Source: Natronospirales bacterium (GTDB lineage Bacteria; Pseudomonadota; Gammaproteobacteria; Natronospirales; REEB76). From it: DNA of 64,000 nucleotides. The DNA is taken from assembly GCA_021816765.1 (NCBI GenBank), contig JAKAXB010000001.1, positions 99,692 to 163,691 of the forward strand. Reading direction: 5' to 3'. The notes below the pieces were generated by a model. That model was not told the origin of the DNA. It did not search any database and saw nothing but the letters and a program-made list of their open reading frames with translations. The position numbers were made by a program, and so were the translations under genes. Below are positions 9,033 to 48,456 of the stretch, in pieces; within the stretch, counting starts at the first letter, position 1; each line of letters begins with the position of its first letter.

Positions 9033-9036
<4 letters not shown>
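8293..9036 (-). CDS. ABC-2 type transporter permease
   Basis: 247-aa polytopic membrane ORF of ABC-2 type. ATGA overlap with the upstream ATPase gene (9033-9036). Confidence 0.85.
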
Positions 9037-10004
<968 letters not shown>

Positions 10005-10071
10005 GGAAATGCTTCCGGTCGGGCAAGATGCAATCATAAGCGCAGTGGAGACCGCTTCCCAGTGACAAACG

Positions 10072-24672: not shown

Positions 24673-24690
24673 GATGATCCTCCTTTTGTA

Positions 24691-31215: not shown

Positions 31216-31705
31216 TTCCATTCTCGTCGTCTGCACCGGAAACATCTGCCGCAGCCCCATGGCCGCCGGCCTGTTGCGCCACGCCGTGGGTGCAGGTGAC
31301 GGAGCGCCCCGCGTGGATTCCGCGGGGCTCGCCGCCATGACAGGCGAGCCCGCGGACCCGCTTGCGGTCCGGCTGCTCGCCGGACGCGGCGTGGATATCC
31401 GCGCGCACCGTGCCATGCAGGTGACGGATGCGCTGCTGCGCCGCTCCGCCCTCATCCTGGTGATGGAGCGCGTGCAGCAGGAATCCATCGAGAACCGCTG
31501 GCCGATGCTGCACGGCCGCGTGTATCGCTGGGGGCATTGGCAGGATTTCGATGTGCAGGATCCCTTCGGCCGCGGCGAGCAGGCATTTCACGCCGCGCTC
31601 GCGCTGATTGAGCGCGCATTGCCGGACTGGCGGCAGCGTTTGCAGGCGCGGCGCGCAGGCACGCGCATTGATCCGTCAAGTCAGGGAGTCCGCTCCGGTG
31701 GATGA
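31208..31705 (+). CDS. low-molecular-weight protein-tyrosine phosphatase (Wzb-like)
   Basis: P-loop CTGNICRSPMA and DPFG loop. 8-nt overlap with the patatin gene. The last approx 17 codons look like read-through into the downstream gene remnant. Confidence 0.85.
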   Translation: MFDSILVVCTGNICRSPMAAGLLRHAVGAGDGAPRVDSAGLAAMTGEPADPLAVRLLAGRGVDIRAHRAMQVTDALLRRSALILVMERVQQESIENRWPMLHGRVYRWGHWQDFDVQDPFGRGEQAFHAALALIERALPDWRQRLQARRAGTRIDPSSQGVRSGG

Positions 31706-32485
31706 GGTGTGGATCGCCCTGCCGCTGGAGCAGAGCCGGAAACCGCGGGAGGTGCTCGGGCAGTTGCGGGACGTGCCGGCGAACGTGCGCTATGCGCCGG
31801 ATCTTCGGGACCTGTTCCTGTTGAACCACGGGGTGACGGAGATTCTCGACTTGCCCATGATTGATCTGATGACCAGCCCCATGCAGGGCACGGACAGCTT
31901 GCTGAAAGCCTTCGAAGATCGCATGCTGGCGTCGGTAATTCTTGTGCTCATCAGCCCCCTGATGGTTTTGATCGCCCTTTGCGTGAAACTGAGTTCGCCG
32001 GGACCGGTGTGGTATCGCCAGCGGCGGCACGGCTGGGACGGGCACGAGATCGTCGTTTACAAGTTTCGCACCATGCGGCTGCCTCATGAGAAGCCGGGCC
32101 GGGTAACCCAGGCCTCCCCGCAGGATCAGCGCCTGACTTCCCTGGGTGCGTTTCTGCGGCGCACCAGCCTGGATGAGTTGCCGCAGTTCATCTAATGTGC
32201 TGCAGGGGCGTATGTCCATCGTCGGGCCGCGCCCGCATGCGGTGGAGCACAACGCCGAGTACAGAAAGATCATAGACCGGTATATGCTGCGCCACATCGT
32301 CAAGCCCGGCATCACCGGCTGGGCCCAGGTCAACGGTTTGCGCGGCATGACCGATACCCCGGACAAGATGCGGCATCGCGTGGAGTACGATCTGTACTAT
32401 TATTGACCATTGGTCCCTCTGGTTCGACATCAAGATCATCTTCCTGACTTTGTTCCGGGGATTCGTCAACAAGAATGCGTATTGA
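31665..32485 (+). pseudogene. undecaprenyl-phosphate sugar phosphotransferase (WbaP/WcaJ/EpsB type), N-terminally truncated with two +1 frameshifts
   Basis: Homology runs through three frames: VDEVWIALP...KFRTM...DELPQFI (stop 32193-32195), then NVLQGRMSIVGPRP...YDLYY (stop 32404-32406), then [21 protein letters not shown] to 32485. The N-terminal TM region is absent. Confidence 0.75.
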
Positions 32486-32499
32486 GAGTCGGAGGGGGA

Positions 32500-33930
32500 A
32501 TGTCGTCAGCCGTTGATGCAATTGTGCCGGTGATTCTCTGCGGGGGCTCGGGTACCCGGCTCTGGCCGCTGTCGCGCCGGGAGCATCCCAAGCAATTTCT
32601 GCGGCTGCTCGGCGAACGCTCCCTGTTGCAGGAAACCCTGCTGCGGGCGCAGATGCCGGCGCCCGGGCACGCGCCGCTGATCGTGTGCAACGAAGCCCAC
32701 CGTTTTCTGGTGCGTGCCCAACTGGCGGAACTGGGCCTCGAAGCCGCCACGCTGCTGCTGGAGCCCGCCGGCCGGAATACGGCACCGGCGCTGGCGGCGG
32801 CGGCGCTGTATGCGCGGAGCCGGGAGCCCGCAGCACTTTTGCTTGCATTGCCCGCGGATCATCACCTCAAGGACACGCCGCATTTCACGGCCGCGGTCCG
32901 GCGGGGAGTCGCCGCGGCGCGTGCCGGCGCCATCGTGGTGTTCGGCGTGCGTCCCACGGAACCGCACACGGGATACGGCTATATCCGTACCGACGGCACG
33001 GCCGGCCGCGATGGCGTGTGCGGCGTGGCGGAGTTCCGCGAAAAACCGGACGCGGCGACCGCCGCCCGCTACCTCGAGAGCGGCGCATATTTCTGGAACA
33101 GTGGCATGTTCCTGCTGCGGGCGGAGGTGTATCTGGCGGAACTCGGCCGGCACGCGCCCGATATTCTGGACGCGGCCACGGCGGCGCTGGCCGGGGCGCG
33201 GAGCGATGGATCGTTCCTGCGGCTGGAACCCGCGGCCTTTCGCGCCTGCCGCAGCGAATCCATTGACTACGCGGTGATGGAACACACGCGTTCCGCACGC
33301 ATGGTGGAATTGGATACGCCCTGGAGTGACCTCGGCTCCTTTGCCAGCCTGTTTGCGGCGGGTGCGGGGAGTGATGGCGGCAATGTGGCGGTGGGCGATG
33401 TGCGGCTTATGGATGTGTCGGGGTCGTACGTACATGCGAGTGGACGGTTGGTGGCGGCCATCGGCTTGCGCGACACTGTGGTGGTGGAAACCCCGGATGC
33501 GGTGCTAGTGGCGCCGCGCGAACGCGCGGAAGAAGTCAAAGCCTTGACGGCAATGCTGGAGCAGGAAAAGCGCAGCGAGGCGACCACGCCGGCACGCGTG
33601 CACCGGCCCTGGGGCTGGTATGAGTGTCTTGCCAGGGGCGAGCGCATGCAGGTGAAGCGCATCCGGTTGAACCCGGGGGCCAGCCTGTCGCTGCAACTGC
33701 ATCATCACCGCGCCGAGCATTGGGTGGTGGTGCAGGGCGAGGCGCAGGTGATCCGCGGCGAGGACCATCTGACCCTCAGGGAAAACCAATCTACGTTTAT
33801 TCCCGTCAACACCCGGCACCGGCTCTTCAATCCGGGTCCGCTGCCGCTGGAGATCATCGAAGTGCAGAGCGGTGAGTATCTGGGGGAGGACGACATCGTG
33901 CGCTTCGATGACGAATACGGACGCGTTTGA
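32500..33930 (+). CDS. manC: mannose-1-phosphate guanylyltransferase / mannose-6-phosphate isomerase
   Basis: ILCGGSGTRLWPLSR at the N-terminus; C-terminal cupin LQLHHHRAEHWVVVQGEA. Start trimmed to ATG 32500. Confidence 0.9.
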   Translation: MSSAVDAIVPVILCGGSGTRLWPLSRREHPKQFLRLLGERSLLQETLLRAQMPAPGHAPLIVCNEAHRFLVRAQLAELGLEAATLLLEPAGRNTAPALAAAALYARSREPAALLLALPADHHLKDTPHFTAAVRRGVAAARAGAIVVFGVRPTEPHTGYGYIRTDGTAGRDGVCGVAEFREKPDAATAARYLESGAYFWNSGMFLLRAEVYLAELGRHAPDILDAATAALAGARSDGSFLRLEPAAFRACRSESIDYAVMEHTRSARMVELDTPWSDLGSFASLFAAGAGSDGGNVAVGDVRLMDVSGSYVHASGRLVAAIGLRDTVVVETPDAVLVAPRERAEEVKALTAMLEQEKRSEATTPARVHRPWGWYECLARGERMQVKRIRLNPGASLSLQLHHHRAEHWVVVQGEAQVIRGEDHLTLRENQSTFIPVNTRHRLFNPGPLPLEIIEVQSGEYLGEDDIVRFDDEYGRV

Positions 33931-34482
33931 ATCACCTGGATGGCTGGGAAGCCCTGGTTTATCCCTGCGGTTTCCCCGAAACCGGGAGACGGCGATCGGA
34001 TCCCGGCCTTCACTGGAAACTGCTCCCGCCGTTTGCCGTGATTTCCGGTGGCGTGCATCCGGTCGGGACGATGCACCATCCATGCGGACCAAGAGCGCGG
34101 GTGGCTTGGCAAGCTGCTGACAGGATTGGCGGTGGAGCGCTGCTGGCACGTTCCGGAAGCAATCGCTGCCCGGACCCGATTGTGGACGCGAAAGATGCAA
34201 AGCCCCAGCGTCCTGCGCACAATATGCGGTCACCTCTGCGTGGACCAGCCGGGGGCGCGGGCATCTCTTTATCGGGGACGGCAGAAACCCCCGCCCGCAG
34301 GCGAGACACGCGCGGCGGTGTGCGGGGGGGTCAGCGGGCCTCGCGGCCGGTGGTGCCGGGCCCGGGGGCGTACGAAACCGCTGATATTCCAGATACCATA
34401 ACCGCTGCCAGGCATGTGCTTCAGGGTCAGGCCGGTCACAAGCCGCGCCACACAGCCGTTACGGCAGTCAGCATTTGCGTAA

Positions 34483-35415
34483 ATGAAAAAGGTTCTGGTC
34501 ATACAGTATTCCCAAAGCGGGCAGCTCAGCGAGGTGCTGCGGCATTTCTGCGCGCCGCTGGTTGACTCCGGCCGGATCGAACTGCGCGTGGAAACCCTGC
34601 GTCCCAAGCAGGCGTATCCGTTCCCCTGGCCGTTCTTGCGTTTTTTTGACACTTTTCCGGAAGCGGTCTATCTGGACGCGCCGGAGCTGGAGCCCCTTTC
34701 CCTCCCACTCGGTGAGCGTTTTGACCTGGTGATTCTGGGCTATCAGGTGTGGTTCCTGTCCCCCTCACTGCCCGTCACCGCGTTCCTGAAAAGTGCGGCG
34801 GCGCGCGCGCTGTTGCAGGACACGCCGGTGGTGACCGTCATCGCCTGCCGCGATATGTGGCTCATGGCCCAGGAGCAGGTGAAGCGCCTGCTCGCCGCTT
34901 GCGGCGCGCGGCTGGTGGGCAATGTCGCGCTGGTGGACGAAGCCGGCAGCGTGGGCAGTTTTCTCGCCACGCCCATCTGGATGCTGACCGGCAGGAAAGG
35001 CCCGCTGCTGGGCGGGTGGATTCCCCGCGCCGGCGTCAAGCCGGAGCAGATTTCAGGCTGCCGGCGTTTCGGGGAGCGCATCGAGCGCGTGCTGAACGAG
35101 GCGCACCCGCTCGACACGACCCTGCTGCGCCACCTCGGTGCGGTGAAGGTGAATACGCGCCTGATTGCCACCGAACGCGCGGCCCGGCGCAGCTTCCTTG
35201 TCTGGGGGGCGCTGCTGCGCGCCCTGGGCCGCCAGGGCGCCTGGACCCGCCGCCCCGTGGTCGCCGTCTATTTTGTGTTTCTCGTCGCGCTGCTGGTCAC
35301 GGTGCTGCCCTTGAGCGCCCTGCTCAAGACGCTGACGGCGCCCCTGCTGCGCAAACGCATCGCCGCCCAGACGGCTTATTTCAGCGCACCCTCGGGTGAC
35401 TCAATCGGAATGTGA
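34483..35415 (+). CDS. darA: DarA-like protein (dialkylresorcinol condensing enzyme family)
   Basis: 310 aa. The N-terminus MKKVLVIQYSQSGQLSEVL and the overall size and layout match my recollection of the DarA family. It sits immediately upstream of, and overlaps, a KAS III-like gene as in dar loci. Confidence 0.6.
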   Translation: MKKVLVIQYSQSGQLSEVLRHFCAPLVDSGRIELRVETLRPKQAYPFPWPFLRFFDTFPEAVYLDAPELEPLSLPLGERFDLVILGYQVWFLSPSLPVTAFLKSAAARALLQDTPVVTVIACRDMWLMAQEQVKRLLAACGARLVGNVALVDEAGSVGSFLATPIWMLTGRKGPLLGGWIPRAGVKPEQISGCRRFGERIERVLNEAHPLDTTLLRHLGAVKVNTRLIATERAARRSFLVWGALLRALGRQGAWTRRPVVAVYFVFLVALLVTVLPLSALLKTLTAPLLRKRIAAQTAYFSAPSGDSIGM

Positions 35416-36599
35416 CCGTGACAGGCAAGGCATACATTACCAATCTTTCCGCATTCCTGCCCAATGCTCCCGTCAGCAACGAGGCGATGGAATCGGTGCT
35501 GGGCATGATCAACGGCCGTCCGTCGCGCGCGCGGCGCATCATTCTGCGCTCCAACGGCATCCAGACACGCTACTACGCCATGGATCCCGTCACGGGCAAA
35601 GCCACCCACAGCAACGCGCAACTGACTGCCGCCGCGATACGCGGGCTGGCGCGCGCGGATTTCAGGCTGGAGCAAATTGATCTGCTCGCCTGCGGAACCA
35701 CCTTTGCCGATCAACTGGTGCCCAGCCACACCAGCATGGTGCATGGTGAACTCGGCATTCCGCCCTGCGAAACCGTGGCCACTTCGGGTGTGTGCATCAG
35801 CAGTACCACGGCGCTCAAATATGCCATGCTCGGCGTGGCCGGCGGGGAGTTCCGGCATGCGGTGAGTGCCGGCTCGGAGATGCCTTCGGCGGTGATGCAT
35901 GCCAGGAATTTCCGGGCCGAGAGCGATGCGCAGATCGAGGCGCTGGAAAAACAGGCGGTGACGGCGTTTCAGAAGGACTTCATACGCTGGATGCTGTCCG
36001 ACGGTGCGGGTGCCGCGCTGATTGAACCGCAGCCCGCCGCCGCGGGTTTGTCGCTGCGCATTGACTGGATCGTGGAGCGCTCCTATGCCAACGAACAACC
36101 GGCCTGCATGTATGGTGGCGCGGAAAAACTGGAGGACGGAAGACTGAAAGGCTGGCCGGAGTACGACCCCTCGGAATGGGCGGAGCGTTCCATATTCACG
36201 CTCAAGCAGGATGTGAAGCAGCTCAACGAGCACATCATGGCCTACACCGTCGAGCGGCCGCTGCGGGAAATACCGCAACTGCGGAGCCTGCGGCCCGGCG
36301 ACGTTGATTTCTTCCTGCCGCATTATTCTTCGCATTATTTTCGCGAGAAAGTCCACGCGCACATGTGCAAAGCCGGTTTCGATGTTCCGTTCGAACGCTG
36401 GTTCACCAACCTGTATTCCAAGGGCAATATCGGCGCGGCTTCCATTTATGTCCTGCTTGAGGAGCTGTTCCATTCCGGCCGCTTGCAACCGGGTCACCGC
36501 CTGTTGTGCTACATCCCGGAGAGCGGCCGTTTCAGCACGGCCTGGATGTACCTCCGCGTCTGCGGTGCGGATGGAAAGACCCCGTCTTCACGCCGATGA
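35412..36599 (+). CDS. darB: KAS III-like ketosynthase (DarB-like)
   Basis: 395 aa. Cys/His/Asn triad candidates in SGVCISS, LPHYSSH and KGNIGAASI. GTGA overlap with the upstream gene. Confidence 0.7.
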   Translation: MTVTGKAYITNLSAFLPNAPVSNEAMESVLGMINGRPSRARRIILRSNGIQTRYYAMDPVTGKATHSNAQLTAAAIRGLARADFRLEQIDLLACGTTFADQLVPSHTSMVHGELGIPPCETVATSGVCISSTTALKYAMLGVAGGEFRHAVSAGSEMPSAVMHARNFRAESDAQIEALEKQAVTAFQKDFIRWMLSDGAGAALIEPQPAAAGLSLRIDWIVERSYANEQPACMYGGAEKLEDGRLKGWPEYDPSEWAERSIFTLKQDVKQLNEHIMAYTVERPLREIPQLRSLRPGDVDFFLPHYSSHYFREKVHAHMCKAGFDVPFERWFTNLYSKGNIGAASIYVLLEELFHSGRLQPGHRLLCYIPESGRFSTAWMYLRVCGADGKTPSSRR

Positions 36600-37000
36600 A
36601 GCAAGACGAGGTTCCGCAACAGCATGCCAGGGCATTCATGGGCCACAGCAAGGTACTGTACGCGCTGGATGAGCAAGGCCACTATGCGGCAACACCCTGC
36701 AGCGGCTGGGAAGCCGAGGAGATTGTCCTCGATCAGGCCATAGCGGAATTCGAGCGCCGCGCCGCCGACGCCTGGCAACGCGCCCGGCAGGGCCGTGGTT
36801 CGGCGCTCGAATATCACATGTATCACCGGCGCATGGATCTTGTGCTGCTGGCGCAAAGCACCGGTTTCTGCAAATGGCGGGTGCGCCGGCATCTCAGACC
36901 CGGTGCGTTCCCAAAGCTGTCCGACCGGTGCAGACAGCGCTATGCCGAAGCCCTGGGTTTGACGCCAATGCAACTGGACACGCTCCCGGAGCAACCGTGA
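36596..37000 (+). CDS. hypothetical protein, possible C-terminal helix-turn-helix
   Basis: 134 aa. ATGA overlap upstream and GTGA overlap downstream. The segment MDLVLLAQSTGFCKWRVRRHLRPGAFPKLSDRCRQRYAEALGLTPMQL resembles XRE-like HTH proteins. Confidence 0.55.
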   Translation: MKQDEVPQQHARAFMGHSKVLYALDEQGHYAATPCSGWEAEEIVLDQAIAEFERRAADAWQRARQGRGSALEYHMYHRRMDLVLLAQSTGFCKWRVRRHLRPGAFPKLSDRCRQRYAEALGLTPMQLDTLPEQP

Positions 37001-38016
37001 ATGCCGCCCCAGCACCGCTCGATATCGGGATTCCCTTCGATCACCGGCAAAGCGCGCATTGCGAAAGCGGCGTGATCGCATCCCTGCTGCGCCATCAAAA
37101 CGTAGCGATCTCCGAACCGATGGCTTTCGGCATCGCCGCCGGATTGGGCTTCGCCTACCTGCCATTCGTCAAATTCGGCGGCTTGCCGCTGTTCGCTTAC
37201 CGCATGCCGCCTGGCAGCATCATCCGTGGCCTGACCCGGCGTCTCGGCATCGAGATGCACTTTGAAACCTTCCGGCAACCGGCAGCCGGCATGCAGGCAC
37301 TCGATCAGTATCTGTCCCGGGGACGGGCGGTCGGCATACAAACGTCGGCGTTCTGGTTGTCCTATTTCCCACCGGATATGCGCTTTCATTTCAACGCCCA
37401 CAATCTGGTGGTGTACGGAAAACGCGGCGACCACTACCTGATCAGCGACCCGGTGATTGATATCCGGGTCGAATGCGATGCGGATTCCCTGCGCAAAGCC
37501 CGCTTCACGCGCGGTGTGTTGGCGCCCAGGGGTTTGCTCTACTATCCGCGATATATTCCGTCGAAGTTGGATCTGCCGCGCGCCATCCGCAAGGCGATTC
37601 TCTACACCACCGGCATGATGCTCTACGTACCCGTGCCGATACTGGGTGTGCGCGGCATCCGCCTGGTATCACGAAAAATACGCAATTTGAACCCGCGCGA
37701 GGAGCATCGCAACAAGTTGCTGCTGGGTCACATGGTGCGCATGCAGGAAGAAATCGGCACCGGCGGCGCCGGTTTCCGTTTCCTGTATGCGTCCTTCCTC
37801 CAGGAAGCCGCCGGCGTGCTGGGCAAGCCCGGCCTCGCGGTCATTGCGGATGAACTGACCGCGGTGGGCGACGCATGGCGGCGCTTCGCGCTGCACGCCG
37901 CGAAAATGTGCAAGGGCCGGATGCCGATGGATTACGGCTTGCTGGCCGATGAATTGCTGCATTGCGCGCAGCGGGAACGCGGCATCTATAAACAGCTACG
38001 CGCCGAGATAAAATAG
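36997..38016 (+). CDS. BtrH-like (papain-fold, DUF4872-type) putative ACP-dependent acyltransferase
   Basis: 339 aa from a GTG start. The N-terminal FDHRQSAHCESGVIASLL matches my recollection of the BtrH N-terminal domain, with a candidate catalytic Cys. Confidence 0.55.
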   Translation: MNAAPAPLDIGIPFDHRQSAHCESGVIASLLRHQNVAISEPMAFGIAAGLGFAYLPFVKFGGLPLFAYRMPPGSIIRGLTRRLGIEMHFETFRQPAAGMQALDQYLSRGRAVGIQTSAFWLSYFPPDMRFHFNAHNLVVYGKRGDHYLISDPVIDIRVECDADSLRKARFTRGVLAPRGLLYYPRYIPSKLDLPRAIRKAILYTTGMMLYVPVPILGVRGIRLVSRKIRNLNPREEHRNKLLLGHMVRMQEEIGTGGAGFRFLYASFLQEAAGVLGKPGLAVIADELTAVGDAWRRFALHAAKMCKGRMPMDYGLLADELLHCAQRERGIYKQLRAEIK

Positions 38017-38856
38017 GGACCAGCCGCGTTCCGGATGCCCGTCCACGAGAAACAGAGTCCCCGGCTCACGGCTGACGGCAAATGCCGCAAGCCACGCCGC
38101 TTCCAGACTGTCGTGAAATGCACTGGTCGGGCCAGACAGCGCGCCGGCATCGAACCCCCGCTGCATCGTCTTGGCCGCGTGCGTTTCCATACTGCGGGCG
38201 CAACACAACCGGTCGCCCGTGCGCCAGACCGATTTCAGAAAATCCTCCAGCGTCGCAAACTCCGCGAAACGTTTCAGGTCCAGGGATCGGGAGTCACCTG
38301 TACCCGGCTGCAACACGAACCAATGGCTGCCTTCGGCCAGCGTCCGATCTTCGGGCAGGTGCTGGCGCAGACGATGCTCGCCGAGCGGGAGCGTGACTTC
38401 CTCCACCACGCCCACCAATGCCTGACCGACGACGCCGTGTGTCAGGTCCGCCATGGCTGCGCCCAGCACCGCTTGCAGGCTGGCACCGCGCCGGGAAATG
38501 AAAAAATTCTGGCCTCGCAAACCCAGATTTCTGGCGACGTGGAATCCAGCGCTGCTGCCCAGCGTGTTGACGAAATTGACCGGCTTGGGGATTTCCGCAT
38601 CGCGTATCAGTTGTTGCTGGGTCAGGATATTGTTGCCAATGGGCCCGAGACCGGAGCCGAGATAAATTCCGCAGTCCGGTTGCAGGGTGCGGCCGGCCAC
38701 GCAGCGCGCTGAGCCGAGCAGTGCCAGCTGGATGAACCGGTCAATGCGCCGGAATCGTTCCCGGCACAAATTTTTCAAGGCCGCTTCCAGTGGAGGCAGC
38801 GCGGCGCCGTCATGCACCGGTTGCAGGTAATCGCTGGCTGATATCGCCTGGATCAT
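37996..38856 (-). CDS. beta-ketoacyl synthase paralogue lacking the active-site Cys (chain-length-factor-like)
   Basis: 286 aa. KS-like fold with NTLGSSAGFHV where the KS Cys motif is expected. ATGA overlap with the KS gene. Confidence 0.7.
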   Translation of the reverse strand: MIQAISASDYLQPVHDGAALPPLEAALKNLCRERFRRIDRFIQLALLGSARCVAGRTLQPDCGIYLGSGLGPIGNNILTQQQLIRDAEIPKPVNFVNTLGSSAGFHVARNLGLRGQNFFISRRGASLQAVLGAAMADLTHGVVGQALVGVVEEVTLPLGEHRLRQHLPEDRTLAEGSHWFVLQPGTGDSRSLDLKRFAEFATLEDFLKSVWRTGDRLCCARSMETHAAKTMQRGFDAGALSGPTSAFHDSLEAAWLAAFAVSREPGTLFLVDGHPERGWSLFYLGA

Positions 38857-40004
38857 GGCGCGGTTTTTTCCAGTACCAGCACGGTATTGTTGCCGCCGAA
38901 ACCGAAATGGTTGAGCAGATAGTGGCCGTCCGGCGCCGCCTCCGGCGTGATGATCGGCTGCACGCCGAGCGCGGGATCGGGTGTTTCAAATCCGGGCGTG
39001 GCGGGCAGGAAGCTGCGTTGTAACGCGCCGGCGAACAGGATCAGTTCGTTGATCCCGCATGCGCCCAGCGTGTGTCCGAGATAGGGTTTGAGCACCGACA
39101 ACGGCGGCAGACCGGCAAACACCTGCCGTATCCCCAGGGCTTCGGCGGTGTCGCCCGCGGGCGTGGCGGTGCCATGCGCCTTGATGCCGCGCACCTGTCG
39201 CGGCCGCAAATGCGTCTGCTCCAGGGCCTGATTCAATACCGCCGCCACGGACTTGCCGTTGGTGTTGGCAGTGGTGACGCTCCAGGTGTCACAATTGCTG
39301 GCGCCGCCGATCACCCGCAGGCGGTTTGCGGAATCCGTTTCCGCTGACAGCACCACCGCACCGATGCCTTCGCCCAGCACGATGCCTTTGCGTGCTGCAT
39401 CGAAAGGGCGCAGTGCGTCTGCCACGATCTGCAAACCCGAGAAACCCGCCAGCGTGGTGCGATTGGCCCATTCCGCGCCCACCACCAGGGCGTGCCGGTA
39501 CCAGCCCAATTCGATCATGCGCAGCGCGCCCAGCAGCGCATTGGCCGATGCCGTGCAGGCGGTGTTGTAGGTGTACGTGTCGCCCCTGCAAGCGAGCGCG
39601 CGTTGCAGGATCGCGGCAATATCCTGATAACCGCACAAGGGCATGGGTATCGCGGTTTCCGATTGATGCGCCAATGCCGCCGCGTAACGCGATTCAGACA
39701 GGCCGATGGAAAAACAGGAAGAACCGATGAACAGCGGCAGCCGGTGGATTTCCTCGGGTGTCAGTCCGGCCTGTGCCACCGCGGCGCGCGCCACCGGTGG
39801 CAGCAGACGTTCCAAGCGTCCGGCATCAAACAACTCCGCGCGATCCGGGATGCGGTAATACGGCATCTGTAGGGGCTCATCGAATTCATCCAGCCGCAAC
39901 ACCACCGGGCGCACCTGCCTGCGCTGCATGGCGGACACGCCGCTTTCCGCATCCTCGCCCAGCGCGCAACTCAATCCCACACCTCGAATGTACGCGCCTG
40001 CCAT
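38853..40004 (-). CDS. beta-ketoacyl-ACP synthase (KAS I/II-type KS)
   Basis: 383 aa. Active-site motifs YNTACTASANAL, KAHGTATPAGD and GHTLGACG. Confidence 0.9.
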   Translation of the reverse strand: MAGAYIRGVGLSCALGEDAESGVSAMQRRQVRPVVLRLDEFDEPLQMPYYRIPDRAELFDAGRLERLLPPVARAAVAQAGLTPEEIHRLPLFIGSSCFSIGLSESRYAAALAHQSETAIPMPLCGYQDIAAILQRALACRGDTYTYNTACTASANALLGALRMIELGWYRHALVVGAEWANRTTLAGFSGLQIVADALRPFDAARKGIVLGEGIGAVVLSAETDSANRLRVIGGASNCDTWSVTTANTNGKSVAAVLNQALEQTHLRPRQVRGIKAHGTATPAGDTAEALGIRQVFAGLPPLSVLKPYLGHTLGACGINELILFAGALQRSFLPATPGFETPDPALGVQPIITPEAAPDGHYLLNHFGFGGNNTVLVLEKTAP

Positions 40005-40013
40005 GAATGATTG

Positions 40014-40283
40014 TCAGGGTACGCTGTCTGACAGGATAAAGTTGGCGAGAGTATTGATGGAAGTCAGCGCGACGCGTGTCTGATTGTTGCCATCAATGCG
40101 TTTTCCATACTGCTGTTTGACCGCCAGCGCGATCTGCAGAGCGTCCAGTGAATCCAGAGCCAGACCGCTCTCGCTGCCGATGAGTATGGCGTCATCCGGG
40201 ATCTGCTCCGGACGCAAATCCTTTTCGCATTCCCGGATAATCATTTGCTTGAGTTCGAGTTTGAGTTGTTCCCTGTCCATCAT
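40014..40283 (-). CDS. acyl carrier protein
   Basis: 89 aa with the phosphopantetheine attachment context GLALDSLDALQIA. ATGA overlap with the permease gene. Confidence 0.85.
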   Translation of the reverse strand: MMDREQLKLELKQMIIRECEKDLRPEQIPDDAILIGSESGLALDSLDALQIALAVKQQYGKRIDGNNQTRVALTSINTLANFILSDSVP

Positions 40284-41488
40284 CCCTTTCCTTCCCGCCT
40301 GCCGGGCCGCAGGCCCGCCAGCGCCAGGCAGGCAAGACCGAACGCAAGCAGGCGCAAGGCATCCGGCGCCACCGTCTGGAGTCCGCCGTGCCGCAGGAAT
40401 ACATCGAGAAAGCCGTCCAGCCCCCAGGCCATGGGTGAATACGCACTCAATGCCTGCATGAGCGGCGGCATCAGGAAGCGTGGCACCATGATTCCGCCCA
40501 GTGCCGCCATCAGCAAATTGGCCACGCCGGTGAAAATAGTCGCCTGTTCGCCGGTGGAGACGAGATTCGCCACCAGCAGGGCATAGGCCACGGAGGCGAA
40601 ACTCAGCGTCAAAGCCATGACAACAAGGGCCGGCGGCGAGTGTCCCAGGGTGAGCCGGTCGCCTCCGAACCAGGGCAGCACGATGAGTCCCACGAGCAGC
40701 ATCACGATCACCTGCAGGAGATTGATGCCGAGATAAGGCAGCAATTTGCCCAGCAGCAGCGCGCGAGTGTTCAACCCCATGCTGCGCAGCCGCGCGTAGG
40801 TGCCCTGCTGCCGCTCCTGCATCCAGGTGGTGGAGAGCGGAATGGCGATGAAAAACATGGCGAAAACCAGCCACGCCGGGACATTCTGCTGCACCGAGGA
40901 GGGGAATTCCATCTGCCCATGCGTCTGATACAGCGATCCGGCATGCAGCAACTTGTCTGCGGCGTCGAAATCAAAGCCCGGGACAGCGGTGGAAACCGGG
41001 GCAGGCATCATGTTTTTCAGACGCGCCAGCGCGTGTTCCGCATAGACCTGGCCCAGCGCGTTGTGCAACGCAGCCTCAAACAGTTTGTACACCGCCGGTT
41101 CGACTCCGGGCCCGGCCAGCATGCGCAGCGGCAACGGATGGGCGTGCAGCAGAGCCTTGCCGAAACCGCGCGGGATAATCACCAGGAACTGCACCTGGTC
41201 GCGGCGCACCCGAGTTGCCAGCGCTGTGGTCGGAACGTGCGCGGGCAAAGCGCTGAACCCCGGCACCGCGAGCAGCCGTTGCGTCAGCGCCGCGCTGACC
41301 GGTCCTGAATCTTCATTGACCAGGTAGTAGCTGATATGCACGGCCTGCTGTGAGGCAAAACTGTTTTGCAAGGCGAGCGACATGACCAGAATGAACACCG
41401 CCGGCATGACGAACAGCAGCAGCAGGGCATGCCAGTCGCGCAGCAGCATGATCCATTCCTTTTTGACGAGGGAATACAGCGTGCGCAT
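40280..41488 (-). CDS. ABC-2 type transporter permease
   Basis: 402 aa: N-terminal TM helix, a large periplasmic loop, then C-terminal ABC-2 membrane helices. Confidence 0.85.
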   Translation of the reverse strand: MRTLYSLVKKEWIMLLRDWHALLLLFVMPAVFILVMSLALQNSFASQQAVHISYYLVNEDSGPVSAALTQRLLAVPGFSALPAHVPTTALATRVRRDQVQFLVIIPRGFGKALLHAHPLPLRMLAGPGVEPAVYKLFEAALHNALGQVYAEHALARLKNMMPAPVSTAVPGFDFDAADKLLHAGSLYQTHGQMEFPSSVQQNVPAWLVFAMFFIAIPLSTTWMQERQQGTYARLRSMGLNTRALLLGKLLPYLGINLLQVIVMLLVGLIVLPWFGGDRLTLGHSPPALVVMALTLSFASVAYALLVANLVSTGEQATIFTGVANLLMAALGGIMVPRFLMPPLMQALSAYSPMAWGLDGFLDVFLRHGGLQTVAPDALRLLAFGLACLALAGLRPGRREGKG

Positions 41489-41489
41489 G

Positions 41490-42413
41490 TCAGTCCCTCA
41501 GCCGGTGTCCGGTCAGGTGCAGAAACAATTGCTCCAGATTCCCATAGCCGTATTTCACCCGGCTGGGCTTGAGCCCATGGGTTGCCAACAGTGCCATGAG
41601 GTGTTGGAAATCGGCCGCGGAGCATTGTGCAACGCGCAGCTCTGAACCCGCGACTTCCAGCCCGGGCCACGCAGCCAGTGCTTTGCACTGTTCGGCGGTA
41701 AGTGTGGATGCGAGCCCCACCACCAGCTGCTTGCTTTCACTGCCTCCCAACAGCTGCTCCAGGGTTCCCTGTACCAGCAGCCGCCCGTTGTCCAGCACGC
41801 CTATTTCATCGCACAACGATTCCACTTCCTCCATATTGTGCGAGGTATACACCACCGTGGTGCCCTGGCTGTTGATGCGGCGGATGGCTTTTAGAATGAA
41901 GTGACGTGACTGCGGATCAATGCCAACCGTGGGCTCGTCCAGAAACAGCAGACGTGGGCGGTTCAACAGGCCGATAGCCAGATTCAGCCGGCGTTTGAGA
42001 CCTCCGGAGAGTCTCTCCGCGCGCGTGCCATGGTGAGGTTCCAGGCCCGACACCGAGAGGGCTTCTTGAATGCGGACGCCGGTTTCTGCGGCCGGAATGG
42101 CGAGGACACCGGCGAAAAACGCCAGATTCTCCGCTATGCTCAAACGCGGATAAAAGGCATAGTCCTGCGGCACCAGCGCACTGAATGACCGGGTTTCCGG
42201 CCGCCGTGCCTGCAGCGATATACCTTCAATCTGCACCCGCCCGGGCGGAGAGGGCAGCAGACCGATCAAAATGGAAATCAACGTGGTCTTCCCCGAGCCA
42301 TTCGGTCCCAGCAGGCCGAACAGGCTCCCGTGCCGGACGCGGAGGGAGAGGTTGCTGATGGCGTCGTTATTTCCCCGTGGATAGCGGAAGCTCAAGCCGT
42401 CAATCTGAATCAC
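41490..42413 (-). CDS. ABC transporter ATP-binding protein
   Basis: Walker A GPNGSGKTT, signature LSGGLKRRLNLA, Walker B LLFLDEP. GTG 42413 is preferred (RBS gggaggga 7 nt upstream); the ORF track starts at 42482. Confidence 0.9.
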   Translation of the reverse strand: MIQIDGLSFRYPRGNNDAISNLSLRVRHGSLFGLLGPNGSGKTTLISILIGLLPSPPGRVQIEGISLQARRPETRSFSALVPQDYAFYPRLSIAENLAFFAGVLAIPAAETGVRIQEALSVSGLEPHHGTRAERLSGGLKRRLNLAIGLLNRPRLLFLDEPTVGIDPQSRHFILKAIRRINSQGTTVVYTSHNMEEVESLCDEIGVLDNGRLLVQGTLEQLLGGSESKQLVVGLASTLTAEQCKALAAWPGLEVAGSELRVAQCSAADFQHLMALLATHGLKPSRVKYGYGNLEQLFLHLTGHRLRD

Positions 42414-42741
42414 GCATCGCTCCCTCCCGTATCGCGCCTGACCCGTGATTTCTTTCACGTGTATGGGTGTGCAATTTAGCATGCCCGCCCGCGCTTTTGC
42501 AGCAGGCGTTCCCTGCGCCGCGCGTATATCCGCGCAGAATGCAACGATGGTCCATGCAGGTTGAATGGCAACGGAGGCGGTGCAAGGGACTCGATGGAAC
42601 CGACTTGATTGGGAAAAGAAATGAAAGCATCGGACAGAATGCCCGTGAGTCGGAGCGACCCGCTTGGCAGGAGCGCGATCGTGGCGCGATGTTGCAGAGT
42701 ATCGCGGCGGAGATCGCCATTCCCGCAGCCGGGGAGGCCGC

Positions 42742-43716
42742 TCAGTGCTGCGTTGGAGAATTGCCCAATGAACCGTTGCCGCACACCGGTATGGAAAAGT
42801 TCCGGTGCTGTTTTGCGAGCGATGCCGTCGGCGGCGGGAATTGTGCCTGCGCTACGACTCGCAGCGCGGCGTCATCCAGGCCGGTGTTGCCACTGGATTT
42901 TACCACGTGGACATCGGCCACTTTCTTATGCAGATATTGAAAGCCGATTTCTGCACAAGACGAATTGGTTGCGGGAACCGTTTTTCCGCCGGCAACATGG
43001 CGCATTTCCGGCGTGATTAGCGGACATGGGACATTTGCAAGAGAGAAACAGATGCCGAATTGAAATTTCAATAACGCATCACGCAACACGGGGGGTGGAG
43101 CAGGAAGTTTTATCGTCGAGAGCTCATCAATCACGGCCTGGTCAAGAACGCCGGATCCGCTGGATTTTACGATTTCCGGATTGATCACCTGACCGTTCCG
43201 ATATTCGAAGCGTGCCACCACTACTCCATAATTCCCCCTCGCCAGGGCCGTTCTCGGATAAGACACATGCTCTTGTATCACGCGGTGAATGGATTCTAAA
43301 AAACCATGGTTGATCGGGCCGATAAACAATTGCAGTTGAAAGCGATGGGGGGTATCGGCGCCGGGCCCCCTGGCGCGCGGCAACTGCATGGTCGGTATCT
43401 GGTCCGCGATGGCCGCATCCAGTAACGGTGAACCGGTGGACTGGATTATGCGGACTTCGCCCAGCCTTCCCTGGTGGTAGGTGAACCGTACCAGCGCAGT
43501 TCCTGATGCAAGGGGTTTGCGGACGGTGCTCTCATACGGGTATTGGATATCCGCTTGCACGGTCTTCCCCAACCTGTCTATCCAATGGGGATTATCCCAG
43601 TACGGCACTGGCGGGGAGCTTGCACAGGCGGTGAGCAGTGCCAATGCAGCGAGCACCGTTCCCGGGTGAATGCGCGGTTTAGTCAGCGGCACCGCCATTT
43701 TCCTGTCATGAATCAC
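42742..43716 (-). CDS. lipoprotein with three tandem TonB C-terminal-like domains
   Basis: Lipobox LALLTACAS. Three modules contain ...G.ALVRFTY..GRL.EVRIIQSTGSPLLDAA, ...GVVVARFEYRNGQV..PEIVKSSGSGVLDQA and ...VADVHVVKSSGNTGLDDAAL. Confidence 0.65.
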   Translation of the reverse strand: MIHDRKMAVPLTKPRIHPGTVLAALALLTACASSPPVPYWDNPHWIDRLGKTVQADIQYPYESTVRKPLASGTALVRFTYHQGRLGEVRIIQSTGSPLLDAAIADQIPTMQLPRARGPGADTPHRFQLQLFIGPINHGFLESIHRVIQEHVSYPRTALARGNYGVVVARFEYRNGQVINPEIVKSSGSGVLDQAVIDELSTIKLPAPPPVLRDALLKFQFGICFSLANVPCPLITPEMRHVAGGKTVPATNSSCAEIGFQYLHKKVADVHVVKSSGNTGLDDAALRVVAQAQFPPPTASLAKQHRNFSIPVCGNGSLGNSPTQH

Positions 43717-43978
43717 GGTTCAGTTGACAATGGCCAACTTGCACGATTCAGGGTAATTCAGAATGGCAGTGAAAACCAGCATGTCGCGTGTTGGAACGGC
43801 GGTACTTACTCCTTGCACCCGGAATCAGTTACCATGCATCAGCCGATTGAAAACCACATTCAGCCGTTTCCGTGGATACCAGGCGCAGATTCTGTAATAC
43901 CGATTCTGCTGCCGCCGAAGACCATCGAAGTCCGGAGCGGAGTGTATCCCGGATGAGTCACCTGAACACGGGTAACCG

Positions 43979-45355
43979 ATGAGCGACGCGCAGGTCCAAT
44001 GTTTCAAGGCTTACGATATCCGCGGGCGGGTGCCCGGCGAGCTGGATGCGGATCTCGCGGTGCGTATCGGCCGGGCGTTCGCCGAGTATCTTGATGCGCG
44101 CAGCGTGGTGGTGGGACGGGACGTGCGGTTGTCCGGTCCGTCTTTCGTACAGGCGGTGTCAGCGGGCCTCGCGGCTGGCGGTGCCGAGGTACTGGACCTG
44201 GGGATGTGCGGCACCGAGGAGATCTATCACGCCGTCAACCATCTGGGGTGCGACGGTGGTGTCATGGTCACGGCGAGTCACAACCCACCCGATTACAACG
44301 GCTTCAAGTTGGTGCGTGCCGGCGCGCGCCCCTTGAGTGAAGACACGGGATTGAGGGAAATCGCCCGACGTGCACTCAGCGACCGTCGCGGGATTCCGTC
44401 CGGTGCGGTCGCAGTGCAGCCGGTGAGCACCCGCGCTGCGTATGTGGCACAGCTGCTCGGTTGCATGACGGGCCCCCTGCGTCCGTTGAAACTGGTGGCG
44501 AATCCGGGTAACGGCGCCGCCGGTCCGGTGCTGGAGCAACTTTTCGCGCGCCTGCCCGTGCAGGTCACCTGGTTGTACCGGGAACCGGACGGCCGTTTCC
44601 CGAACGGCGTGCCCAATCCTCTGTTGCCGGAACACCGGGAGGCAACGGCCCGGGTTGTGCAAGAGACCGGGGCCGATCTCGGCCTCGCCTGGGACGGGGA
44701 TTTTGACCGTTGCTTCTTTTTCGACGAACAGGGCCAGTTCATCGAGGGCTATTACCTTGTGGGGTTGTTCGCCGGGATTTTCCTGCGCAAGTATCCCGGA
44801 TCGAAGATCATCCATGACCCGCGACTTGTCTGGAACACCATCGAGATGGTGGAACGCCTGGGCGGCATCCCCATCGAGTCCAAATGCGGTCATGCCTTCA
44901 TCAAGGAGCGCATGCGCACGGAGGATGCGGTCTATGGGGGCGAGATGAGCGCACACCATTATTTCCGGGAGTTCGCTTACTGCGACAGCGGCATGATTCC
45001 CTGGCTGCTGCTGCTTGAACTCCTGTCATCCACCGATGTACCGCTGTCGGAGCGGGTGCGGGCGCGTCAGGATAAATTTCCGGTGAGCGGCGAGATCAAC
45101 CGCAGTGTCGCGGATGCGGATGCCGCCTTGCAGCGGGTCCAGGAACGGTACGCGGGCGAGGCGGAATGCATCTCGTCCGTGGACGGTATCAGCATGGAGT
45201 TTACGGATTGGCGTTTCAATTTGCGCCGGTCCAACACCGAGCCGCTGCTGCGGCTGAACGTAGAGAGCCGCGGAGATGCACCACTGGTGAAGCGCAGGAC
45301 GCAGGAGATTCTGGCGCTGATGGATGCGCATGCGGCGCGCGGCAGTCGGGCATAA
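43979..45355 (+). CDS. phosphomannomutase/phosphoglucomutase (AlgC/ManB type)
   Basis: Active site TASHNPPDYNGFK and metal site DGDFDR; 458 aa. Confidence 0.9.
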   Translation: MSDAQVQCFKAYDIRGRVPGELDADLAVRIGRAFAEYLDARSVVVGRDVRLSGPSFVQAVSAGLAAGGAEVLDLGMCGTEEIYHAVNHLGCDGGVMVTASHNPPDYNGFKLVRAGARPLSEDTGLREIARRALSDRRGIPSGAVAVQPVSTRAAYVAQLLGCMTGPLRPLKLVANPGNGAAGPVLEQLFARLPVQVTWLYREPDGRFPNGVPNPLLPEHREATARVVQETGADLGLAWDGDFDRCFFFDEQGQFIEGYYLVGLFAGIFLRKYPGSKIIHDPRLVWNTIEMVERLGGIPIESKCGHAFIKERMRTEDAVYGGEMSAHHYFREFAYCDSGMIPWLLLLELLSSTDVPLSERVRARQDKFPVSGEINRSVADADAALQRVQERYAGEAECISSVDGISMEFTDWRFNLRRSNTEPLLRLNVESRGDAPLVKRRTQEILALMDAHAARGSRA

Positions 45356-45571
45356 ATGAACACGCCGGTCACGCGGGTGTCGGCTGCTCGTGGCGGGTGC
45401 GGCGTGCGTCCCTGTCCCGCGCATCGGCCGGATTTCCAACTGACACCCACGCTGCACTGACTCGGCGCACACATCGGGGCGTTTGAGGTTGTGGCGCATG
45501 TCTTCGGGAGACTGCCGCCGCACGGCACACCTCCTGTTTGGGAGGCAGGGGTAGGCAAGCGATGCGCGTCA

Positions 45572-46438
45572 TCATTTCAATTCGTTATGCCGCACCAACA
45601 CTTCCCGCCCCGCGGCGCGGAAGTGCGCGGCCAGTTTCTCCACCACGAACACAGAGCGGTGATAACCGCCGGTGCAGCCCACCGACACGGTGAGGTAGCG
45701 GCGGTTCGAGGATTCGAATTGCGGGATCCAATATTGCAGGAACGTGCTCAGGTCCCCGACGAACCGCTGCGCCGCCTCGCTGTTTTCCAGGAAACGCGCC
45801 ACCGCCGCATCCTTGCCGGTCAGCGCGCGCAGGTCCGCTTCCCAATACGGATTTGGCAGGCCGCGGGCGTCGAAGACAAAATCCGAATCCCCCGGCAGCC
45901 CGTGGCGGAAACCAAAGGATTGGAACAGCAGCGACAACTCCTGGCGCGCACCGCGGTGGATGCGTGCGCGTACCTGCTCCCGCAACTCATGCACCGAAGT
46001 ACGTGTGGTGTCCAGCACCATATCGGCCTCGTCGGCGATGGCACCCAGGAGATCGCGTTCCGCGCGGATGGCATCCCGCAGCGATCGGCCCTCGTTGGCC
46101 AGCGGGTGCGGGCGATGGGTCTCGTTATAGCGTTTCACCAGCACGCCGTCTTCGGCATGCAGGAACACAATGTCGCATTCGATACCCTGGTTGCGCAGAT
46201 GGCGCACGGTTTCCGGCACGGACTTGATGTCCTCGATGCGGTTGCGCGCATCAATACCCACCGCCATGTTGTGGTAGGCCGGATCGCTGCTCAGCAGGGT
46301 TTCGCGCGCCAGGTTCTGCAGCAGGCCGGCGGGGATATTGTCCACGCAGTAGTAGCCCAAGTCCTCCAGCATGTGGAGAGCCACCGATTTGCCGGAGCCG
46401 GACAGGCCGCTGAGGATAACCAGGCGCATGCGCGTCAA
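45572..46438 (-). CDS. rapZ: RNase adapter protein RapZ
   Basis: MRLVILSGLSGSGKSVALHMLEDLGYYCVDNIP with full-length YhbJ/RapZ similarity. Confidence 0.9.
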   Translation of the reverse strand: MTRMRLVILSGLSGSGKSVALHMLEDLGYYCVDNIPAGLLQNLARETLLSSDPAYHNMAVGIDARNRIEDIKSVPETVRHLRNQGIECDIVFLHAEDGVLVKRYNETHRPHPLANEGRSLRDAIRAERDLLGAIADEADMVLDTTRTSVHELREQVRARIHRGARQELSLLFQSFGFRHGLPGDSDFVFDARGLPNPYWEADLRALTGKDAAVARFLENSEAAQRFVGDLSTFLQYWIPQFESSNRRYLTVSVGCTGGYHRSVFVVEKLAAHFRAAGREVLVRHNELK

Positions 46439-46493
46439 ACCTGCAGTGGAAGATCGCTCATGGTCCTAGCATACCTGTTGGCGGCGCGAATGC

Positions 46494-46525
46494 AAAAAAC
46501 GGCGCGTCCGTGTGACGCGCCGTTT
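46494..46525 (-). terminator. rho-independent terminator downstream of hpf
   Basis: On the minus strand: aaacggcgcgtc / acacg / gacgcgccgtt followed by tttttt. Lies 29 nt after the hpf stop. Confidence 0.75.
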
Positions 46526-46553
46526 CCACGCTTTGGCCGCTGATTAACCCGGA

Positions 46554-46877
46554 CTAGGGCGCGGGGATGGTGCGTACACTGGCACGGTCGCCGTGGTCGG
46601 TGAGTTTCTCCTTGTGTTTCTTGATCTGTCGGTCGAGCTTGTCGGTGAGGGCGTCAATGGCGGCGTACATGTCAGTGTCCGTGGCGTCGGCAAAAATCTT
46701 GCCGCGATCCACATGCAGGGTCGCTTCGGCTCTGTGCTCCAGTTTTTCCACCGTCAGTACCACGTGAATGCTGATGACATGGTCGAAATGCCGTTCCAGT
46801 CGCTCGAATTTGTTCTCCACATAGCTCTTGAGCGTCGGGGTGATGTTCACATGGTGACCGGTAATATCAATTTGCAT
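46554..46877 (-). CDS. hpf: ribosome hibernation promoting factor
   Basis: MQIDITGHHVNITPTLKSYVENKFERLERHF, 107 aa, immediately downstream of rpoN. Confidence 0.9.
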   Translation of the reverse strand: MQIDITGHHVNITPTLKSYVENKFERLERHFDHVISIHVVLTVEKLEHRAEATLHVDRGKIFADATDTDMYAAIDALTDKLDRQIKKHKEKLTDHGDRASVRTIPAP

Positions 46878-46905
46878 GATGCCACTCCTGGTTATCGTCG
46901 TGTTG

Positions 46906-48336: not shown

Positions 48337-48456
48337 AACCCTGAATCCTTTATACAAACAAGGCGTTGCCCGTGCCCTCGGCCCCTTGTGAGTGGAGTCG
48401 TGGCCGTGTCCCTCCCCTGTACGGGCAGAGGGGGGATTCACGGGCCCCATGGGAAG

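Follow-up and report, generated by a model that had tools for sequence, protein, structure and literature searches.

Gene content of the locus

A 64,000-nucleotide stretch of DNA from a Natronospirales bacterium (GenBank assembly GCA_021816765.1, contig JAKAXB010000001.1, positions 99,692–163,691 of the forward strand), called the window here, contains a nine-gene locus at positions 34483–42413 with similarity to the dar genes of dialkylresorcinol (DAR) synthesis. The nine genes are arranged in two convergent operons. The plus-strand operon consists of darA (34483–35415, 310 residues), encoding a DarA-family putative aromatase/oxidoreductase; darB (35412–36599, 395 residues), encoding a ketosynthase of the StlD/DarB family, a head-to-head condensing cyclase; darG (36596–37000, 134 residues), encoding a DarG-family protein; and darH (36997–38016, 339 residues), encoding a BtrH-related acyltransferase. 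The minus-strand operon encodes an ATP-binding cassette (ABC) ATPase (41490–42413, 307 residues from a GTG codon at 42413), an ABC-2 permease (40280–41488, 402 residues), a dedicated acyl carrier protein (ACP) DarC with the Ser residue in LDSLD (40014–40283, 89 residues), a FabF-type elongating ketosynthase (KS; 38853–40004, 383 residues) and DarK, a Cys-less KS-like partner (37996–38856, 286 residues). The start and stop codons overlap by 4 nt at 35412–35415 (GTGA), 36596–36599 (ATGA) and 36997–37000 (GTGA) on the plus strand, and at 40280–40283 (ATGA, permease/ACP) and 38853–38856 (ATGA, KS/KS-like) on the minus strand. The two operons share 21 nt tail to tail (37996–38016). As read from the sequence, the nine open reading frames (ORFs), the five overlaps and the convergent layout agree with the original prediction, which had been made from the letters of the window, and all the motifs that it listed (GVCISS, LPHYSSH, KGNIGAAS, SAHCESG, LDSLD, ACTAS, KAHGT and GHTLGACG) are present in the translations. 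The GC content and the third-position GC bias of the module are those of the neighbouring genes. In the region 33800–43000, a simple promoter scan detected no sigma-70 sites, and terminator-like sites were at background (10 against 7.8 expected).

The DarB protein passed the StlD/DarB model NF005293 with 569 bits (cutoff 450), and with the resorcinol_DarB model NF053539 it scored 482 bits, which is under the cutoff of 550. DarB was aligned with the StlD structure 5gk0 over the full length with an E-value of 4.8e-135, and the catalytic motifs are aligned. The Cys, His and Asn residues are located in GVCISS, LPHYSS and KGNIGAAS, respectively. Enzymes of the DarB type couple two thioesters of fatty-acid origin in a head-to-head manner (PMC6836626). 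For the family this reaction is established, and DarB of the window would share it by its membership, which is shown by the sequence.

The homologues of the DarA-like protein with 70–78% identity carry the NCBI name 'dialkylresorcinol condensing enzyme'. The protein is also 46.6% identical to the product of the gene preceding the ketoacyl-ACP synthase III (KAS III) and acpP genes in a plain darABC locus on the Burkholderia pseudomallei plasmid NZ_CP009155. According to the tblastn survey of 80 loci described below, darA adjoins darB in every locus reaching that far. In the AlphaFold2 (AF2) model (predicted local distance difference test score, pLDDT, 84), an N-terminal flavodoxin/WrbA-like domain is followed by long C-terminal hydrophobic helices. 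The best Foldseek matches of the model are flavodoxin, WrbA and PnpB, and the sole match of the DarA profile against the PDB is a WrbA-like protein with a weak E-value of 0.1. The predicted fold and the hydrophobic helices fit a membrane-associated redox aromatase. DarA-type proteins aromatise the DarB products with decarboxylation (PMC6836626). A DarA-family gene is thus assigned directly 5' of darB on the basis of the homologues, the synteny and the predicted fold, not of an experimentally tested DarA sequence.

DarH passed the Pfam models BtrH_N (162 bits) and DUF4872 (172 bits), and the NCBIfam model NF053550 'BtrH-related acyltransferase DarH' with 460 bits (cutoff 300), so that the BtrH-like assignment made earlier holds at the model thresholds. 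No PDB sequence match of DarH was detected. The residues Gln18, His21, Cys22, His131, His135 and Asp151 are invariant in 22 homologues, and the papain-like Cys is located in SAHCESG. A Gln/Cys/His/Asp set of this kind is typical of papain-like acyl-enzyme catalysts. BtrH is the ACP:aminoglycoside acyltransferase in butirosin biosynthesis. DarH and BtrH have the BtrH_N and DUF4872 architecture and the conserved Cys in common, but the dar module contains no aminoglycoside genes. The 134-residue protein encoded by the preceding gene belongs to the DarG family according to NF053536 (153 bits, cutoff 70). The flexirubin-specific equivalog NF053545 was not passed (117 bits against 170). The best AF2 model of DarG has a mean pLDDT of 80, with values above 90 at residues 50–130, and the other four models have values of 49–56. 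In the best model, an XRE/Cro-type helix-turn-helix (HTH) domain is predicted at the C-terminus. Foldseek matches of this model are 3kxa, the HicB antitoxin, Cro/CI, C.AhdI, SinR and the HppE N-domain, with probabilities of 0.9–1.0 and E-values of 2.5e-3 or higher.

The KS passed both the N-terminal (69 bits) and the C-terminal (79 bits) ketoacyl-synt models of Pfam. Its catalytic Cys-His-His residues are intact in ACTAS, KAHGT and GHTLGACG. The PDB matches are FabF enzymes and the aryl-polyene KS 6qsp_A (E-value 7.7e-33). With PRK09185, the model of the aryl-polyene KS, the protein scored 199 bits, under the cutoff of 407. For the KS-like protein, the alignment of its orthologue profile with that of the KS using hhalign gave an E-value of 8.4e-5. 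The 124 aligned columns surround the active site, where a Gly is located opposite the catalytic Cys. The KS-like protein also matched FabF (1j3n) in the PDB with an E-value of 0.004. Homology to the KS fold can be traced over the N-terminal half of that fold only, and the protein is conserved at 34–86% identity in the loci where it is detected. A pair of a KS-alpha and a chain length factor (CLF) of type II polyketide synthases was considered and rejected: the partner has 286 residues and is detectably similar to the N-terminal half only, Gly rather than Gln is present at the Cys site, and no cyclase or ketoreductase (KR) genes are present. An ApeC-type partner was also rejected, as no similarity was found to the 239-residue protein, itself without a family match, that precedes the aryl-polyene KS in L003, one of the related loci. 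The ACP has 15 sequence matches in the PDB, every one of them an acyl carrier protein. Among these, 9ls6_A is the best (E-value 2.3e-6), with the DSxD motif aligned, and the ACP is conserved at 41–91% identity across the loci.

The module has no KR, dehydratase (DH) or enoyl reductase (ER) gene, and thus a single elongation would end at a beta-ketoacyl-ACP. As the beta-ketoacyl-ACP is the substrate of DarB, the KS, the KS-like protein and the ACP may be read as a substrate-supply unit. Such a role would have a parallel in the stilbene synthesis of Photorhabdus, in the KS encoded among the bkd genes. The original prediction proposed another role, in which the KS/CLF/ACP set would build a new polyketide or polyene chain and the Dar-like pair would cyclise it, into a novel class of lipids distinct from both DARs and aryl polyenes. 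The KS with an intact triad, the Cys-less partner and the dedicated ACP are present and translationally coupled, and the KS is about equally similar to the aryl-polyene KS 6qsp and to FabF. However, iterative polyene or reduced-chain synthesis is impossible within the module in the absence of KR, DH and ER, the KS falls below the aryl-polyene cutoff given above, and the partner, in which nothing similar to the C-terminal half of the KS fold is detectable, does not qualify as a type II CLF. Furthermore, DarB is orthologous over its full length to enzymes coupling two thioesters of fatty-acid origin (PMC6836626), and the identical gene set is tied to ordinary DAR in Azoarcus (PMC3949708). We regard this chain-building role as very improbable.

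The permease passed ABC2_membrane_3 (121 bits) and ABC2_membrane (76 bits), and the ATPase passed ABC_tran (101 bits); the score of the ATPase with the DrrA subfamily model (201 bits) is under the cutoff. For the ATPase, the start codon GTG 42413 seems preferable to ATG 42482, because the Shine-Dalgarno sequence GGGAGGGAG precedes GTG 42413, and because the longer ORF would cross a conserved, indel-bearing block that overlaps ATG 42482. This non-coding block (CATGCTAAATT ... AATCACG; 42414–42490, minus strand), located 5' of the ATPase gene, was found by alignment of the upstream regions. It is conserved in the window and eight relatives, though the identity of the operon proteins is only 56–72%. 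The block is likely to be the promoter or operator of the minus-strand operon. The homology between the window and L003 stops at 42417, near GTG 42413. A shared operator was considered as the site of DarG and rejected, since only two weak inverted repeats are present 5' of darA and none is present 5' of the ATPase gene.

Related loci and known dar systems

One genome per GTDB species was scanned with two DarH peptide patterns, and at least 591 stretches were confirmed. Among 8000 candidates scored, 7969 DarH-like relatives had E-values of 1e-10 or lower. The best 80 of the at least 591 loci were then compared by tblastn with the nine window proteins. Among the 48 loci with enough flanking sequence on both sides, all nine genes are present in 41 and the convergent layout in 40; most of the other loci lack only a detectable KS-like gene. 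The two operons are thus co-conserved in related genomes, as the original prediction required. In four of the five betaproteobacterial loci, the second gene set is co-directional with the first. The hosts belong to the Gamma-, Beta- and Alphaproteobacteria, Gemmatimonadota, Planctomycetota and Campylobacterota, the last with a metagenome-assembled genome (MAG) of Sulfurimonadaceae. The closest relative is L001, a locus in the MAG of another gammaproteobacterium (Natronospirales bacterium DX4.bin23, JAJYUH01), which is syntenic with the window at 31694–48635 and has proteins with 86–98% identity. L003 is homologous to the window only at 34486–42417, with 80% nucleotide identity. This homology spans exactly the module, indicating that the module is a discrete unit in differing genomic contexts.

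The closest parallel in gene content was found in the literature. The dar cluster of Azoarcus sp. BH72 (azo0283–0293) consists of darK for a hypothetical protein, darJ for a KS, darC for an ACP, darI for a permease, darH/darG, darF for an ATPase, darE, darD, darB and darA (PMC3949708). In this cluster, darE is BtrH-like, darD is a conserved hypothetical gene, and darH and darG are an inserted PilT/Phd toxin–antitoxin pair (PMC3949708). The Azoarcus DAR proteins yielded dialkylresorcinol in Escherichia coli, whereas in Azoarcus itself free DAR was undetectable and the pigment was arcuflavin, a polyene–DAR hybrid; further dar clusters are reported from Dechloromonas, Variovorax and Sideroxydans (PMC3949708). 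Azoarcus BH72 and the window have the identical nine protein types. They differ in the toxin–antitoxin pair, which is located between the ABC genes in Azoarcus only, and in two unlinked xanthomonadin-like arc loci of Azoarcus, none of which is visible in the window.

The flexirubin clusters of Chitinophaga pinensis and Flavobacterium johnsoniae contain darA, B, G, H, I, J, C and D (PMC12968099; PMC3992019). In this naming, darH encodes a protein with a BtrH N-terminal domain, darI and darJ the ABC proteins, darC the ACP and darD the KS (PMC12968099). The NCBIfam names DarG and DarH, used here, follow the flexirubin nomenclature and clash with that of Azoarcus, in which darG and darH are the toxin–antitoxin pair: our darG and darH correspond to darD and darE of Azoarcus, the KS gene is darD in the former and darJ in the latter, and the ATPase and permease genes are darI and darJ of Chitinophaga and darF and darI of Azoarcus, respectively. 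Heterologous expression of darB and darA of C. pinensis gave DAR (PMC3992019), and a darB mutant of F. johnsoniae is without flexirubin (PMC3992019; PMC12968099). The DarA/B/G/H/ABC/ACP/KS series is common to the Chitinophaga and Flavobacterium sub-cluster and the window, whereas the Chitinophaga set closes with an M14 peptidase gene and the window set with the KS-like darK. In addition, the flexirubin hosts are Bacteroidota and the window host is an uncultured gammaproteobacterium.

Other known systems share smaller parts of the module. In plain darABC loci (the type of 2-hexyl-5-propylresorcinol, HPR, in Pseudomonas, and that of NZ_CP009155), the gene of a DarA homologue immediately precedes that of a KAS III-type DarB, and an ACP is also encoded, as in the window. 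The one plain darABC locus examined, on NZ_CP009155, lacks DarG, DarH, the ABC pair and the KS and KS-like genes, indicating that the extra genes come as one block. The darA-like/KAS III/acpP trio of this locus (L081, 19650–22047) is carried by a conjugative plasmid and flanked by genes for an integrase and a transposase, and the gene in the darA position is annotated merely as a hypothetical protein. The locus in the window is not of the plain type, as its DarB is under the NF053539 cutoff and six further genes are conserved with the module. In the StlC/StlD/StlE system of Photorhabdus, StlD (structures 5gk0–5gk2) aligns with DarB of the window over the full length. The stilbene pathway, however, uses a cinnamoyl-derived substrate and the bkd genes, and no BtrH-like, DarG or ABC-2 genes are present in its module. 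In the aryl-polyene (APE) and xanthomonadin clusters (6qsp), a KS is located beside a catalytically dead KS-like protein and a dedicated ACP, as in the window. The dar module differs from them in lacking KR, DH, LolA, MMPL and starter-unit enzyme genes and in its KS score with PRK09185. It is thus not an APE cluster, which would combine PRK09185 and PRK09116 KS proteins, FabG2, dehydratases and LolA/MMPL.

The ABC ATPase, ABC-2 permease, ACP and FabF-type KS genes are all present in one module with the darA, darB, darG and darH genes. We consider it likely that the nine-gene locus represents the extended dar module in intact form. This DAR gene set accompanies pigments of the flexirubin and arcuflavin types, of which dialkylresorcinol is the resorcinol half. 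The original prediction described an uncharacterised pathway that matches no known locus type. This description is incorrect, as the gene set is published for Azoarcus BH72 and the flexirubin loci. For this nine-gene architecture, a characterised product has already been published (PMC3949708), an outcome that had been named beforehand as refuting the prediction. The module is an ordinary further example of a published, curated and widespread cluster type, and not an orphan pathway.

Several points weigh against this interpretation or parts of it. The gene assignments of the original prediction are largely correct. Hidden Markov models confirm those of DarB, the BtrH-like protein, the KS, the permease and the ATPase, and place the 134-residue protein, for which the prediction had no function, in the DarG family; the other three are weaker. 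The DarA family has no curated model in Pfam or NCBIfam, and the DarA-like protein has no match in either database even at an E-value of 10. The ACP is under both curated cutoffs (PP-binding, 19.0 against 20.8 bits; PRK09184, 48 against 70 bits). The KS-like protein clears the Pfam ketoacyl-synt cutoff only marginally (23.0 against 20.8 bits). The predicted HTH domain of DarG comes from one confident AF2 model of five together with weak Foldseek E-values, and no k-mer, and hence no shared operator, is common to the two sets of upstream regions across the loci. Schoener et al. proposed the ligase-like FlxW, not DarH, for the formation of the ester bond (PMC3992019). The darA and darB genes alone are sufficient for DAR in E. 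coli (PMC3992019). In the literature searched, no published biochemical test of the KS, the KS-like protein, the ACP, DarG, DarH or the ABC pair was found, nor any biochemical study devoted to DarH or DarG. Finally, aryl-polyene genes were found neither in the 64-kb window nor in 21 kb of the syntenic L001, and this bears on the acyl donor of DarH.

Aryl-polyene genes and the possible product

The ORFs flanking the 80 loci were clustered into recurrent families. An APE-type KS (PRK09185, 500–512 bits) and a FabG2 ketoreductase are both located beside the module in 22 of the 80 loci. The recurrent flanking families include this KS, FabG2 (TIGR01831; also FlxB-like), a halogenase-like flavoprotein, an MMPL/HAE3 exporter, a polysaccharide deacetylase and a phosphopantetheinyl transferase (PPTase). 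LolA2-like genes also recur in the flanks, and small recurrent families without a model match are putative dehydratases, named so by analogy only. In L003, an operon co-directional into darA encodes a LolA2-like protein, an MMPL protein, a protein of no recognised function, the PRK09185 KS, a putative dehydratase without a family match, FabG2 and a PRK09116 KS. The dar genes and a full set of the aryl-polyene/xanthomonadin type form one supercluster in L003 (295–7429) and in L018–L021, L033, L038, L046–L048 and L057–L064. Some of these superclusters add a halogenase-like flavoprotein, a deacetylase and a PPTase.

No such genes accompany the module in the window. According to Pfam, no KR, DH, ER, ammonia-lyase, adenylating enzyme, LolA or MMPL gene is present in about 34 kb upstream and 4 kb downstream, in agreement with the original description of the flanks. 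A tblastn search of the whole window with KS, KR, DH, FAD-oxidoreductase, MMPL and LolA representatives gave no further match except a generic short-chain dehydrogenase/reductase gene at 335–1078.

For the extended dar module, we propose the following pathway. A fatty acyl starter and malonate would be condensed on the ACP to a beta-ketoacyl-ACP by the FabF-type KS, which probably forms a pair with the Cys-less KS-like protein. DarB would then join the beta-ketoacyl thioester and an alpha,beta-unsaturated acyl thioester from fatty-acid metabolism by Michael addition and Claisen condensation, and a carboxy-cyclohexanedione would be formed. DarA, presumably a membrane-associated protein with the predicted flavodoxin/WrbA-like fold, would aromatise and decarboxylate the ring to the 2,5-dialkylresorcinol, the role published for the family. 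DarH, a Cys-dependent enzyme of the BtrH type, may move an ACP-bound acyl group to the resorcinol. The acceptor is presumably the resorcinol hydroxyl group, so that an ester would be formed instead of an amide, and the acyl group is most likely an aryl-polyene chain from a separate cluster. The ABC-2 exporter may take the lipid out of the cytoplasmic membrane. DarG, with its predicted XRE-type HTH domain, might be a pathway-specific regulator or an adaptor. As the two promoter regions have no shared operator, the regulator role is given only as a suggestion. Since the DarG/DarH/ABC/KS block is present in the producers of esterified DAR and is missing from the plain darABC locus examined, acyl transfer by DarH and export by the ABC pair are supported. 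The pathway retains the rough order of the original prediction, from an ACP-bound substrate through the Dar pair and the BtrH-like enzyme to the ABC exporter, whereas its cyclisation of a KS/CLF-built chain is unsupported, as no reductive enzymes are present.

The module alone could also make free dialkylresorcinols or cyclohexanediones, which would be exported by the ABC-2 pair as diffusible signals, antioxidants or antimicrobials. The product would then be like HPR of Pseudomonas or the DAR/PauR signal of Photorhabdus asymbiotica, and DarH would, for example, load acyl groups on DarC or off-load them. This would agree with the lack of aryl-polyene genes in the window and in the examined part of L001, and with about two-thirds of the related loci, which have no adjacent polyene genes within the available sequence. 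DARs are known to signal through PauR (PMC4414361), and the activity of darA and darB alone in E. coli (PMC3992019) can be understood in the same way. On the other hand, the one plain darABC locus examined lacks the DarG, DarH, ABC and KS genes. The studied organisms with the extended block (Azoarcus, Chitinophaga and Flavobacterium) make polyene-esterified DAR, and free DAR was not detected in Azoarcus (PMC3949708). The polyene clusters are often unlinked, as in the two arc loci of Azoarcus and in Chitinophaga (Cpin_1853–1877 against Cpin_6850–6851), and their absence from 64 kb therefore says little on whether the final product is free DAR or a polyene ester. In the vicinity of the module, no gene for a PauR-type receptor was seen. 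The sole nearby LuxR-family gene (21345–22283) was considered and rejected as such a receptor, since it encodes an ordinary GerE-domain response regulator paired with a histidine kinase. The production of free DAR as the end product is considered unlikely.

Genomic neighbourhood and implications

According to Pfam, the genes on both sides of the module are of housekeeping and envelope types. Those upstream encode a penicillin amidase, a ParA/BY-kinase-like ATPase, a patatin, a low-molecular-weight phosphatase, a sugar-transferase remnant and ManC. On the downstream side, a TonB_C lipoprotein, a phosphomannomutase and RapZ were identified by Pfam, and these are followed by Hpf-like and RpoN-like ORFs, recognised by reading only. 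The Bac_transf sugar-transferase gene (31608–32406) is truncated at the 5' end. A 1-nt insertion near 32193 (CAGTTCATC-T-AATGTG) splits its domain over two frames. The homology to L001 begins at 31694, and in L001 the ORF is intact (523 residues). The gene is thus a pseudogene or an assembly error. The synteny with L001 breaks upstream of this gene. The lipoprotein-like gene adjoining the module (42742–43716) has two TonB_C domains, and about 480 bp inside it (43127–43603) have no counterpart in the syntenic L001, possibly by a difference in repeat number.

Two more pairs of ABC ATPase and ABC-2 permease genes are located in the window (8293–10136 and 23152–26387), and a gene of the BAAT/acyl-CoA thioesterase family (23152–24672) adjoins the second of them. 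The penicillin-amidase family includes acyl-homoserine lactone acylases. The member in the window (26695–29082, 795 residues, 517 bits) is located 5 kb upstream of the module. This gene showed no link to the dar genes, and in the other loci it is not conserved beside the module.

From the comparison with Azoarcus and the flexirubin hosts, the appropriate annotation of the locus is an extended dar module, not an orphan pathway. Beyond the literature searched, the survey adds the very wide spread of the module (at least 591 stretches) and its nature as a discrete nine-gene unit with sharp borders. A KS/KS-like/ACP trio making the beta-ketoacyl substrate of DarB would explain the missing KR, DH and ER genes. 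The predicted flavodoxin/WrbA-like fold of DarA and the predicted XRE-type HTH domain of DarG are concrete hypotheses for two proteins without Pfam families.

In the lineage of the window, the extended dar module might even work without an aryl-polyene partner. The trio would supply both the DarB substrate and a plain acyl chain, with which DarH would esterify the resorcinol, and the product, a colourless envelope lipid of the acyl-dialkylresorcinol type, would be exported through the ABC-2 pair, with DarG as a dedicated XRE-type regulator. We consider this possibility speculative and quite unlikely. If it is true, a polyene-free acyl-dialkylresorcinol would be a product class not yet described, and so would this role of DarH. 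The compact, polyene-free context of the locus would be a clean starting point for elucidating what DarH, DarG, the KS-like protein and the ABC pump do.

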